Source: Escherichia coli (lineage in GTDB: Bacteria > Pseudomonadota > Gammaproteobacteria > Enterobacterales > Enterobacteriaceae). From it: a DNA stretch of 64,000 bases. The DNA is taken from the NCBI RefSeq assembly GCF_011045215.1, contig NZ_CP049201.1; one strand, 5' to 3'. The translations under genes and the position numbers were made by a program. Below the pieces are notes generated by a model. That model made no database searches and was not told the origin of the DNA. It saw nothing but the letters and a program-made list of their open reading frames with translations. Every line of letters begins with the position of its first letter. The first letter of the stretch is position 1. Below, piece after piece: positions 8,455-41,030 of the stretch.

Positions 8455-8568
8455 GGGGGCTCTGTTGGTTCTCCCGCAACGCTACTCTGTTTACCAGGTC
8501 AGGTCCGGAAGGAAGCAGCCAAGGCAGATGACGCGTGTGCCGGGATGTAGCTGGCAGGGCCCCCACCC
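8455..8568 (+). ncRNA. ffs: 4.5S RNA (SRP RNA)
   Basis: Sequence reads GGGGGCTCTGTTGGTTCTCCCGCAACGC...GGAAGGAAGCAGCCAAGGCAGA...GGGCCCCCACCC, matching the 114-nt 4.5S RNA including the conserved domain IV loop; located between atl and ybaA. Confidence 0.93.
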
Positions 8569-24098: not shown

Positions 24099-26030
24099 AT
24101 GAGTTATCAGGTCTTAGCCCGAAAATGGCGCCCACAAACCTTTGCTGACGTCGTCGGCCAGGAACATGTGCTGACCGCACTGGCGAACGGCTTGTCGTTA
24201 GGGCGTATTCATCATGCTTATCTTTTTTCCGGCACCCGTGGCGTCGGAAAAACCTCTATCGCCCGACTGCTGGCGAAGGGGCTAAACTGCGAAACCGGCA
24301 TTACCGCGACGCCGTGCGGCGTGTGCGATAACTGTCGTGAAATCGAGCAGGGGCGCTTTGTCGATCTGATTGAAATCGACGCCGCCTCGCGCACCAAAGT
24401 TGAAGATACCCGCGACCTGCTGGATAACGTCCAGTACGCTCCGGCGCGTGGTCGTTTCAAAGTTTATCTCATCGACGAAGTGCATATGCTGTCGCGCCAC
24501 AGCTTTAACGCACTGTTAAAAACTCTTGAAGAGCCGCCGGAGCACGTTAAGTTTCTGCTGGCGACGACCGATCCACAGAAATTGCCGGTGACGATTTTGT
24601 CGCGCTGTTTGCAATTTCATCTCAAGGCGCTGGATGTCGAGCAAATTCGCCATCAGCTTGAGCACATCCTCAACGAAGAACATATCGCTCACGAGCCGCG
24701 GGCGCTGCAATTGCTGGCACGCGCCGCTGAAGGCAGCCTGCGAGATGCCTTAAGTCTGACCGACCAGGCGATTGCCAGCGGTGACGGCCAGGTTTCAACC
24801 CAGGCGGTCAGTGCGATGCTGGGTACGCTTGACGACGATCAGGCGCTGTCGCTGGTTGAAGCGATGGTCGAGGCCAACGGCGAGCGCGTAATGGCGCTGA
24901 TTAATGAAGCCGCTGCCCGTGGTATCGAGTGGGAAGCGTTGCTGGTGGAAATGCTCGGCCTGTTGCATCGTATTGCGATGGTACAACTTTCGCCTGCTGC
25001 ACTTGGCAACGACATGGCCGCCATCGAGCTGCGGATGCGTGAACTGGCGCGCACCATACCGCCGACGGATATTCAGCTTTACTATCAGACGCTGTTGATT
25101 GGTCGCAAAGAATTACCGTATGCGCCGGACCGCCGCATGGGCGTTGAGATGACGCTGCTGCGCACGCTGGCGTTCCATCCGCGTATGCCGCTGCCTGAGC
25201 CAGAAGTGCCACGCCAGTCCTTTGCACCCGTCGCGCCAACGGCAGTAATGACGCCAACCCAGGTGCCGCCGCAACCGCAATCAGCGCCGCAGCAGGCACC
25301 GACTGTACCGCTCCCGGAAACCACCAGCCAGGTGCTGGCGGCGCGCCAGCAGTTGCAGCGCGTGCAGGGAGCAACCAAAGCAAAAAAGAGTGAACCGGCA
25401 GCCGCTACCCGCGCGCGGCCGGTGAATAACGCTGCGCTGGAAAGACTGGCTTCGGTCACCGATCGCGTTCAGGCGCGTCCGGTGCCATCGGCGCTGGAAA
25501 AAGCGCCAGCTAAAAAAGAAGCGTATCGCTGGAAGGCTACCACTCCGGTGATGCAGCAAAAAGAAGTGGTCGCCACGCCGAAGGCGCTGAAAAAAGCGCT
25601 GGAACATGAAAAAACGCCGGAACTGGCGGCGAAGCTAGCGGCAGAAGCCATTGAGCGCGACCCGTGGGCGGCACAGGTGAGCCAACTTTCGCTACCAAAA
25701 CTGGTCGAACAGGTGGCGTTAAATGCCTGGAAAGAGGAGAGCGACAACGCAGTATGTCTGCATTTGCGCTCCTCTCAGCGGCATTTGAACAACCGAGGTG
25801 CACAGCAAAAACTGGCTGAAGCGTTGAGCACGTTAAAAGGTTCAACGGTTGAACTGACTATCGTTGAAGATGATAATCCCGCGGTGCGTACGCCGCTGGA
25901 ATGGCGTCAGGCGATATACGAAGAAAAACTTGCGCAGGCGCGCGAGTCCATTATTGCGGATAATAATATTCAGACCCTGCGTCGGTTCTTCGATGCGGAG
26001 CTGGATGAAGACAGTATCCGCCCCATTTGA
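24099..26030 (+). CDS. dnaX: DNA polymerase III subunits tau (full length) and gamma (by frameshift)
   Basis: 643-aa ORF, AAA+ clamp-loader Walker A GTRGVGKTS; the internal slippery site yields gamma. Confidence 0.97.
   Translation: MSYQVLARKWRPQTFADVVGQEHVLTALANGLSLGRIHHAYLFSGTRGVGKTSIARLLAKGLNCETGITATPCGVCDNCREIEQGRFVDLIEIDAASRTKVEDTRDLLDNVQYAPARGRFKVYLIDEVHMLSRHSFNALLKTLEEPPEHVKFLLATTDPQKLPVTILSRCLQFHLKALDVEQIRHQLEHILNEEHIAHEPRALQLLARAAEGSLRDALSLTDQAIASGDGQVSTQAVSAMLGTLDDDQALSLVEAMVEANGERVMALINEAAARGIEWEALLVEMLGLLHRIAMVQLSPAALGNDMAAIELRMRELARTIPPTDIQLYYQTLLIGRKELPYAPDRRMGVEMTLLRTLAFHPRMPLPEPEVPRQSFAPVAPTAVMTPTQVPPQPQSAPQQAPTVPLPETTSQVLAARQQLQRVQGATKAKKSEPAAATRARPVNNAALERLASVTDRVQARPVPSALEKAPAKKEAYRWKATTPVMQQKEVVATPKALKKALEHEKTPELAAKLAAEAIERDPWAAQVSQLSLPKLVEQVALNAWKEESDNAVCLHLRSSQRHLNNRGAQQKLAEALSTLKGSTVELTIVEDDNPAVRTPLEWRQAIYEEKLAQARESIIADNNIQTLRRFFDAELDEDSIRPI
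25382..25393 (+). promoter_or_regulatory. dnaX programmed -1 ribosomal frameshift site (A AAA AAG heptamer plus shifted-frame stop)
   Basis: AAAAAAG at 25382-25388 lies in the dnaX frame as A AAA AAG; the -1 frame reads AAA AAA GAG TGA; upstream SD-like AGGGAG and downstream GC stem-loop (ccggcagccgctacccgcgcgcggccgg). Confidence 0.9.
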
Positions 26031-33344: not shown

Positions 33345-33435
33345 TCGTAGGCCAGATAAGGCGTTCACGCCGCATCTGGCATTTGGCATCTCGATGCCTG
33401 ATGCGACGCTGGCGCGTCTTATCATGCCTACATAT
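33345..33435. repeat. REP element pair downstream of gsk
   Basis: cgtaggccagataaggcgttcacgccgcatctggca ... gcctgatgcgacgctggcgcgtcttatcatgcctac, REP consensus in inverted orientation. Confidence 0.8.
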
Positions 33436-38506: not shown

Positions 38507-38986
38507 TTAATCGCGGCGGGCGATATCAGCAAATTTGGCATCGAGGATCTTCGCCAGGTCGCCTGCCGCCAGTTCGATATCCAGTCCGCGCTTGCCGCCG
38601 GAAACATAAATAGTGGCAAATTCTTGTGCAGGGGCGTCGATAATTGTTGGCAGACGTTTTTTCTGCCCCAGTGGGCTAATCCCCCCTACCAGATACCCCG
38701 TCGAACGCTGCGCGGCCATCGGATCAGCCATCTCAACTTTCTTGGCACCCAGCGCTTTTGCTACTTTTTTAAGATCCAGTTGACCTGCGACCGGCGTAAC
38801 GGCCACGGCAAGGTGTTTCATATCACCGTTCACTGCCACCAGCAGCGTTTTGTAGACCTGATCCGGATTCAAACCTAATTTTTTGACGACTTCATCGCCA
38901 AAATTGGTTTCAGCCGGATCGTGCTCGTAGGTATGGATTTGAAACGAAATCTTGTTTTTTTCGAGTAATTTAACTGCGGGTGTCAT
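38507..38986 (-). CDS. ybaK: Cys-tRNA(Pro)/Cys-tRNA(Cys) deacylase YbaK
   Basis: 159-aa ORF, YbaK/ProX editing-domain family. Confidence 0.92.
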
Positions 38987-39107
38987 GGTAATTTTCCTGC
39001 CTTAAACAAAAAAACGAAGCAAGCATACGCCTGATGGCGATCCAAAAAAAAGAGTCATCTTGCCTAAGAGTATTGGCAGGATGGTGAGATTGAGCGACAA
39101 TCGAGTT

Positions 39108-39191
39108 ACACCGTCGCTTAAAGTGACGGCATAATAATAAAAAAATGAAATTCCTCTTTGACGGGCCAATAGCGATATTGGCCATTTTTTT
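39108..39191 (+). ncRNA. chiX: small regulatory RNA ChiX (MicM/SroB)
   Basis: Sequence ACACCGTCGCTTAAAGTGACGGCATAATAATAAAAAAATGAAATTCCTCTTTGACGGGCCAATAGCGATATTGGCCATTTTTTT: 5-prime hairpin, A-rich seed region, terminator hairpin plus U-run; located in the ybaK-ybaP intergenic region where ChiX is encoded. Confidence 0.85.
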
Positions 39192-39984
39192 AGCGCAACA
39201 TTTGCGGCAAATTCCCTTCTCCATACAGGTGTAGTGCACCGACCGCGACCACATATCGCCCCGGCGGCATGGCGCGTAATTTATCCCGCCAGGCGAGATT
39301 TCGCTGATGCATCAGCACATCGTACAGCGACTGACTGAACGTATTGGGCAGCGTTATTTCATTATTTTGCGGCGGCGCATTCAGCCACCAGCTCATCATT
39401 TGTTGCAGCAACCGTGCGTTGGTATGCCAGTGGGTCAGCGTATCGTCCAGCAGCGCCAGTCCTTTGTCAGGGAGCTGGAGCAACATGGCAATCTGGTTTT
39501 CAGCCCCTTCCAGTTCAATCACGGGTTTATGTTGTTGCTTCGCCGCCTGCAATAGCTGGTAATCGATACCGTATTCTGCCCGCAGCCCCAGTTTTTGCGC
39601 CTGCGTCGCCTGAAGAACCATCGCGATTTGCCACAGCGGTTGGGTAGAAAAGAGCGAGGGAGAAATGCCCATCTCCTGGCTAATGTGCTGCAGGTTTTGG
39701 AGTTGCTCCTCGCTAATGCGCTCTTCCAGCGCCTCACAGGCAGGCAAATTAGCAAAAGGCGTATCGCTGGTGGAAACATCCGCCTCGACGATCAGCGCAT
39801 CGGCGTTTTTGAGCTTTTTGAGCAAACGGGTGGGCAGGGGAGCCATATCGTGGCTACCCATATGAATACTGCCAATCAGATGAAAATGGCGATTGCCGGG
39901 AAGGGTGATATCGATGGCAGGCCAGGTGTAATGATTACCGCGCAGCGCGGCCCAAAGCGTTTTTACCCGGTACAACAGATCCAT
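39190..39984 (-). CDS. ybaP: TraB-family protein YbaP
   Basis: 264-aa ORF. Confidence 0.85.
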   Translation of the reverse strand: MDLLYRVKTLWAALRGNHYTWPAIDITLPGNRHFHLIGSIHMGSHDMAPLPTRLLKKLKNADALIVEADVSTSDTPFANLPACEALEERISEEQLQNLQHISQEMGISPSLFSTQPLWQIAMVLQATQAQKLGLRAEYGIDYQLLQAAKQQHKPVIELEGAENQIAMLLQLPDKGLALLDDTLTHWHTNARLLQQMMSWWLNAPPQNNEITLPNTFSQSLYDVLMHQRNLAWRDKLRAMPPGRYVVAVGALHLYGEGNLPQMLR

Positions 39985-40121
39985 ACGACCTCCCTTTGTG
40001 AAATATCATGCTAGCGCGCGGGGAGGGATGGCGCAAATGGAGTTGGGGACTTGTTTAATGTGTTTGTATGATTCAGTATGTTCTTGTATCGCTATTCACA
40101 GGGAAGCAACAGTTAAAAAGT

Positions 40122-40463
40122 ATGAAACAGGCAACAAGAAAACCGACGACACCCGGAGATATTCTTCTCTATGAATATCTGGAACCGCTCGATTTGAAAA
40201 TCAATGAGTTAGCAGGGTTGCTGCATGTTCATCGTAATAGCGTCAGTACACTGATCAATAACAATCGTAAACTCACCACTGAGATGGCATTCCGTCTGGC
40301 GAAAGTTTTTGATACCACAGTCGATTTTTGGCTAAACCTCCAGGCGGCAGTTGATCTTTGGGAAGTTGAAAACAACATGCGCACCCAGGAAGAATTGGGA
40401 CGGATTGAAACAGTGGCTGAATATTTGGCACGCCGTGAAGAGCGTGCAAAAAAGGTCGCGTAA
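40122..40463 (+). CDS. ybaQ: HigA-like XRE-family HTH DNA-binding protein YbaQ
   Basis: 113-aa product from the internal Met (MKQATRKPTTPGDILLYEYLEPLDLKINELAGLLHVHRNSVSTLINNNRKLT...); track ORF 40068-40463 is an extension. Confidence 0.85.
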   Translation: MKQATRKPTTPGDILLYEYLEPLDLKINELAGLLHVHRNSVSTLINNNRKLTTEMAFRLAKVFDTTVDFWLNLQAAVDLWEVENNMRTQEELGRIETVAEYLARREERAKKVA

Positions 40464-40484: not shown

Positions 40485-41030
40485 CGTAGGCCGGATAAGG
40501 CGTTCACGCCGCATCCGGCATCCGAGCACCATTGCCTGATGCGACGCTTACGCGTCTTATCAGGCCTACAAACCTGTGCCTGAACCGTAGGCCGGAGAAG
40601 GCGTTCACGCCGCATCCGGCATCCGAGCACCATTGCCTGATGCGACGCTTACGCGTCTTATCAGGCCTACAAACCTGTGCCTGAACCGTAGGCCGGAGAA
40701 GGCGTTCACGCCGCATCCGGCATCCGAGCACCATTGCCTGATGCGACGCTTACGCGTCTTATCAGGCCTACAAACCTGTGCCTGAACCGTAGGCCGGAGA
40801 AGGCGTTCACGCCGCATCCGGCATCCGAGCACCATTGCCTGATGCGACGCTTACGCGTCTTATCAGGCCTACAAACCTGTGCCTGAACCGTAGGCCGGAG
40901 AAGGCGTTCACGCCGCATCCGGCATCCGAGCACCATTGCCTGATGCGACGCTTACGCGTCTTATCAGGCCTACAAACCTGTGCCTGAACCGTAGGCCGGA
41001 GAAGGCGTTCACACCGCATCCGGCAGTCAT
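40485..41030. repeat. tandem array of REP-containing units (BIME-like), five full 101-bp copies plus a degenerate sixth
   Basis: Unit cgtaggccggagaaggcgttcacgccgcatccggcatccgagcaccattgcctgatgcgacgcttacgcgtcttatcaggcctacaaacctgtgcctgaac recurs starting at 40485, 40586, 40687, 40788, 40889 (period exactly 101 bp); generates the identical 76-aa track ORFs on the minus strand. Confidence 0.9.

Follow-up and report, generated by a model that had tools for sequence, protein, structure and literature searches.

The interval 39108–39191 on the plus strand of the Escherichia coli window analysed here (the whole stretch of DNA under study, 64,000 nucleotides long) is most probably the chiX gene, encoding an Hfq-dependent, trans-acting small RNA; we put the probability of this reading at roughly 97%. 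The assignment draws together a full-length Rfam match, identity with the K-12 gene, presence in 5422 of 5426 genomes, the placement of promoter and terminator, the fold, covariation, seed complementarity and the gene neighbourhood, and no sequence evidence against it was found. Both the chiX gene and its overlap with ybaP are already known, and the overlap is shown in the reference annotation. A sequence-only reading had placed ChiX on the plus strand of the ybaK–ybaP spacer, and its coordinates prove right to the base when compared with the Rfam match and the K-12 gene. Its further statement, that the U-run ends at 39191 while the stop codon of the convergent ybaP lies at 39190–39192, can be read directly from the letters and the open reading frame list.

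Table 1. Features of the chiX locus, given in window coordinates
Feature	Position	Strand	Basis
ybaK, Cys-tRNA(Pro)/Cys-tRNA(Cys) deacylase; upstream of chiX, divergent	38507..38986	-	ORF list and annotation
Sigma-70-like promoter of chiX: -35 TTGGCA (39073-39078), 17-bp spacer, -10 GACAAT (39096-39101)	39073..39101	+	Promoter scan
Probable chiX gene (synonyms sroB, micM, rybC), 84 nt	39108..39191	+	RF00368 match, K-12 identity
5′ stem-loop, ChiX nt 4-22, 8 pairs, CCGUCGCU/AGUGACGG	39111..39129	+	MFE and centroid folds
A-rich single-stranded linker, ChiX nt 23-44	39130..39151	+	Centroid fold, triplet count
Seed / target-pairing region, ChiX nt 45-58, UCCUCUUUGACGGG, C/U-rich	39152..39165	+	Complementarity, Rfam consensus
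Rho-independent terminator hairpin GGCCAATAGCGATATTGGCC, 8 pairs, 4 G-C, loop GCGA	39164..39183	+	Terminator scan
U7 tail of terminator; last two positions common to ybaP stop codon	39185..39191	+	Read directly
ybaP, TraB/GumN family protein, 264 aa	39190..39984	-	ORF list; named ybaP in K-12 and PGAP genomes

Identity and surroundings of the gene

A covariance-model scan of the whole window (cmscan, Rfam 15, gathering thresholds) places family RF00368 exactly on 39108–39191 of the plus strand, at 82.1 bits (E = 1.8e-10) against a gathering score of 44 bits. This family is named sroB in Rfam and corresponds to ChiX/MicM/RybC. The match spans model positions 1–83 of 83 and is not truncated; the search that had been proposed as a check of the sequence-only reading thus returns the family at full length and well over threshold. 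The letters of the interval, ACACCGTCGCTTAAAGTGACGGCATAATAATAAAAAAATGAAATTCCTCTTTGACGGGCCAATAGCGATATTGGCCATTTTTTT, match chiX (b4585) of E. coli K-12 MG1655 at 100% identity; the K-12 record carries the ncRNA chiX at 507204..507287 (+), ybaK at 506603..507082 (-) and ybaP at 507286..508080 (-). Gene order, strands and the 2-nt chiX/ybaP overlap are the same in the window as in this annotation. Specifically, the minus strand carries both ybaK and ybaP, and chiX is positioned antisense within their 203-nt spacer, convergent with ybaP and divergent from ybaK; its position between the two genes is also given in the list of PMC3384567.

K-12 ChiX agrees with the window in its 84 nt, the two promoter hexamers, both flanking genes and the overlap with ybaP, and no difference lies within the gene. 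Alignment of the ybaK–ybaP spacer likewise detects no difference in the RNA, the promoter or the ybaP end. One substitution is present in the ybaK–chiX spacer, where the window carries A at 39040 and K-12 carries G, as does strain 504239; this position is outside the promoter hexamers, 68 nt upstream of where ChiX begins. Across complete E. coli genomes, the 84-nt sequence occurs once per genome in 5422 of 5426, with an identity of at least 99% in 5011 of the 5422 genomes with chiX. The PGAP RefSeq E. coli records examined list only ybaK and ybaP at 38950–39350, and not chiX.

The promoter TTGGCA-17-GACAAT is the only promoter-like site in 38900–39400 and is the same in K-12, and the RNA start falls 7 nt past its -10 hexamer. 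In addition, a GAGCGACAAT block is kept upstream of the RNA in Enterobacteriaceae-type loci, for example in Citrobacter, Enterobacter, Klebsiella and Kluyvera. Because one site is also expected by chance, shuffled sequence yielding a mean of 0.9 such sites, the promoter call rests on position and conservation. From identity with K-12 chiX we infer that ChiX would be expressed and would bind Hfq in this strain, and that it would form a discrete transcript of ~84 nt repressing chiP.

Several other elements are located in the window by Rfam, namely the 4.5S/SRP RNA ffs (8463–8559, 68.1 bits), the dnaX programmed-frameshift element (25363–25427, 96.8 bits) and a solitary REP/naRNA4 element (33350–33428, 71.4 bits), all of which are expected in this part of the E. 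coli chromosome. The mechanical open reading frame of ybaQ (40068–40463), whose product is named HigA-family antitoxin by PGAP, begins at an upstream ATG and comprises 131 aa; the K-12 protein has 113 aa, corresponding to a start at 40122. The ybaQ–copA spacer is filled by a tandem array at 40485–41025, in which a 101-bp REP/BIME-type unit recurs 5.4 times with 99% matches and which carries five Rfam naRNA4 hits. Strains differ in the copy number of the array: this spacer is 618 bp long here, 315 bp long in K-12 and 214 bp long in strain 504239.

Fold, terminator and homologues

The ChiX RNA folds with a minimum free energy of -24.1 kcal/mol (z = -3.9; 1 of 200 shuffles as good). Both the minimum free energy and the centroid structure consist of a 5′ stem-loop (nt 4–22) and the terminator, with an essentially open stretch between them, so that two hairpins flank a single-stranded A-rich linker and the seed in the arrangement of RF00368. 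The linker contains four AAN triplets in succession (AAU AAU AAA AAA) and one more, and remains unpaired in the centroid fold apart from weak A–U pairing with the U tail. At the level of sequence, the U7 tail and the AAN repeats are those of class II Hfq-binding small RNAs. ChiX of K-12 and Salmonella is a class II sRNA with its U tail on Hfq's proximal face and with AAN motifs on the distal one, the binding site for the proximal face being the U tail of sRNA terminators (PMC7987339), and both Hfq binding and Hfq-dependent stability are known for the identical K-12 RNA (PMC7987339, PMC7815308). Here, the U tail and AAN repeats would engage the proximal and distal faces, respectively. MgrR, another class II Hfq sRNA, resembles ChiX in combining a U-tailed terminator with AAN repeats (PMC7987339), whereas MgrR and the other class II sRNAs are unrelated to ChiX in sequence, targets and regulation.

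Scanning species-representative genomes with the pattern AAATTCCTCTTTGACNGGCC yields at least 120 loci. Among the matches listed, all belong to Enterobacterales except one (L060), situated in a Lindowbacteria MAG, which is a chance pattern match without hairpin or T-run and below the Rfam threshold. When 16 loci including this one are scanned, the other fifteen, one per genus, all pass the sroB gathering score at 54–86 bits; the genera passing include Klebsiella, Yersinia, Hafnia, Serratia, Rahnella, Pantoea, Erwinia and Proteus. The seed, the terminator and the A-rich linker are shared by ChiX of Salmonella, Citrobacter, Enterobacter, Klebsiella, Serratia, Yersinia, Pantoea and Proteus, whereas ChiX of other Enterobacterales differs from that of the window in the sequence and length of the 5′ hairpin and varies in its relation to ybaP. 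Upstream, ybaK stands divergent from chiX in 110 of the 112 testable loci of other species among the matches listed.

In Proteus (L065 and L091), no ybaP is found next to chiX. The convergent downstream open reading frame there ends in ...LRFKPKQ*, resembling the C-terminus ...LRFKPKE* of the window CopA, and this CopA-like frame suggests that the ybaP–ybaQ block is absent or located elsewhere in Proteus.

A 5′ hairpin of at least 6 pairs stands directly before the A-rich linker in 107 of 107 distinct homologues among the matches listed (median -12.5 kcal/mol), and its stems differ completely, as in CCGUCGC, CCGAUGC, CCGGAG, CCGAAGG, UCUGGCC and GUAACCG. Since a MAFFT alignment of the 107 homologues is out of structural register at this hairpin across genera, each sequence was folded alone for the 5′ hairpin and pair counts were taken for the terminator only. 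These counts reveal 99.3% of cells paired in the terminator helix across the 107 distinct homologues among the matches listed, and pairing falls to 23–52% of cells when the partners are slid by 1–3 columns. Double-sided changes occur at 3 of the 8 pairs, replacing A–U by G–C in 17 and 4 sequences and A–U by U–A in 3. Covariation in the 107 homologues supports the predicted terminator helix.

The letters show hairpin GGCCAATAGCGATATTGGCC followed by one A and then T7; this hairpin followed by ATTTTTTT is the only plus-strand terminator-like site in a scan of 38900–39400. Convergent genes often share bidirectional terminators, and the hairpin starts 7 nt from the ybaP stop, where a ybaP terminator would be expected. 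Hairpin and T-run could on this basis be assigned to ybaP, as its own terminator or as a shared bidirectional one, rather than to an independent sRNA gene. Only the plus strand, however, has the T-run: read on the minus strand, the hairpin precedes CGTCAAAGAGG, which holds no T-run, and the terminator scan reports only the plus strand at this hairpin. A bidirectional terminator was rejected on the lack of a minus-strand T-run past the hairpin. An independent plus-strand gene is, moreover, defined by the promoter, by the Rfam match over the full model and by the ncRNA entry in the K-12 annotation, and we regard assignment of the hairpin to ybaP as very improbable.

A small protein encoded on the strand antisense to chiX is rated lower still and is almost certainly not what the region holds. 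The six-frame list does contain minus-strand frames of 94 aa (38970..39254) and 55 aa (39002..39169), but that list is purely mechanical, and no CDS is annotated there in K-12 or in PGAP genomes. Homologues carry 1- and 2-nt indels in the linker, such as E. coli ATAAAAAAATG versus Citrobacter ATAATG--ATG, and their wholly different 5′-hairpin sequences keep pairing rather than codons. The minus-strand protein was rejected on these frame-breaking indels and pairing-preserving changes.

Seed pairing and proposed action of ChiX

Within the seed, ChiX nt 45–56 (UCCUCUUUGACG) show perfect complementarity along 12 nt with CGUCAAAGAGGA in the leader of K-12 chiP, a stretch that lies at nt -19 to -8 from the AUG and covers the Shine-Dalgarno sequence; 0 of 1000 shuffles match this. 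Overlapping the same stretch, nt 47–58 are complementary at all 12 positions to CCCGUCAAAGAG in the K-12 chbB–chbC spacer, a length equalled by 9 of 1000 shuffles. Complementarity was evaluated by seeking the longest perfectly complementary stretch, with shuffled sequences as the control, and was checked on the K-12 copies, chiP and chb being outside the 64-kb window. Full-length duplex prediction of ChiX with the chiP leader and the chbBC spacer was rejected: the duplexes were over-extended because intramolecular structure is ignored, and their z scores were weak (-2.2 and -4.1).

The block AAAUUCCUCUUUGAC is the most conserved part of the RF00368 consensus. Invariance of the seed among the fetched loci is not evidence, since the scan pattern itself contained the seed. 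Divergence from the ChiX seed had been named beforehand as grounds for giving up the sequence-only reading; the seed is the same as in K-12, and the reading stands.

ChiX constitutively represses chiP by pairing at its ribosome-binding site, and induction of the chb operon by chitobiose provides a decoy whose pairing with ChiX sets off decay of the sRNA (PMC4098024). The block of chiP translation uncovers a Rho site and silences chiQ (PMC6582626), while ChiZ, a fragment of the chiP leader, acts as a second ChiX sponge (PMC7815308). It is mainly these decoy or sponge RNAs, the chbBC spacer and ChiZ, that control ChiX, rather than regulation at its promoter (PMC4098024, PMC7815308). Carried over to the window strain, the seed would pair with the Shine-Dalgarno sequence of chiP mRNA and block chitoporin translation, and the blocked translation would expose the Rho site and silence chiQ as well. 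Upon chb induction, the chbB–chbC spacer would engage the same seed and destabilise ChiX, and ChiZ would do likewise.

The bases shared by chiX and ybaP

On the plus strand, TTA at 39190–39192 is the complement of the ybaP TAA stop, and 39190–39191 are common to the T-run. The generality of this register was counted over loci of 115 other Enterobacterales species in which chiX is directly followed by a convergent YbaP homologue, anchored on tblastn YbaP matches. Among the matches listed, 87 of the 115 loci share the arrangement of the window, a ybaP TAA stop with 2 nt inside the ChiX T-run; 4 of 115, of the Pantoea type, have a 1-nt overlap with a TGA stop; the ybaP frame continues into chiX in 5 of 115; and the two genes are separated by 3–230 nt in 19 of 115. 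In the five run-on loci the base after the T-run is G, not A. The terminator loop holds the stop of four of these frames (L041, L048, L066 and L094), and the frame of Phytobacter massiliensis (L026) stops ~87 nt in. The stop stays put even though the tails of YbaP are of different lengths and sequences (...NLPQMLR*, ...PEMLKKG*, ...AMLQPQG*, ...LLQPNER*). The pinned ybaP stop is most simply read as inheritance plus pinning, a packing feature in which the stop would be held in place because selection on the terminator U tail acts on two of its three bases.

The overlap could instead be functional, through either antisense read-through or convergent transcription, and we consider this unlikely. 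By the antisense route, minus-strand transcripts running from ybaP to ybaK would contain the exact complement of the 84-nt ChiX and might serve as a cis-encoded sponge or be cleaved. By the interference route, convergent transcription from the strong, constitutive chiX promoter could damp ybaP or set ybaP/ybaK expression. That 87 of 115 species among the matches listed retain this 2-nt register despite variable YbaP tails is consistent with such a role, as are the lack of an evident plus-and-minus terminator for ybaP and the relabelling of 'ybaP.EST3UTR' as ChiX in a RIL-seq study (PMC10954441). Furthermore, on the minus strand of 38987–39190, from the stop of ybaP to the start of ybaK, the promoter scan found no sigma-70-like site for ybaK, so that ybaP transcripts may cross chiX in antisense. 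Shared ancestry and the U-tail constraint nevertheless account for the pinned stop without added function, and the register is dispensable, given that 19 of the 115 loci among the matches listed have the genes separated and in 5 ybaP runs into chiX. The literature search returned no experimental report of ybaP–ChiX coupling, only a gene-neighbour table and an annotation remark. As a separate observation, the only terminator-like hairpin on the minus strand of 38987–39190 is a weak one at 39033..39020 (-).

The locus matters chiefly for annotation. Readers who rely on open reading frames or PGAP see an 'empty' spacer, because chiX is unlisted in the PGAP records examined despite its presence in 5422 of 5426 genomes, and the two shared bases mean that boundary-based deletions or annotation rules can confuse chiX with ybaP. 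ChiX is among the best-characterised enterobacterial sRNAs, and the finding has little importance beyond correct annotation; the pinned stop would provide a small example of a constrained terminator fixing the end of an adjacent reading frame.
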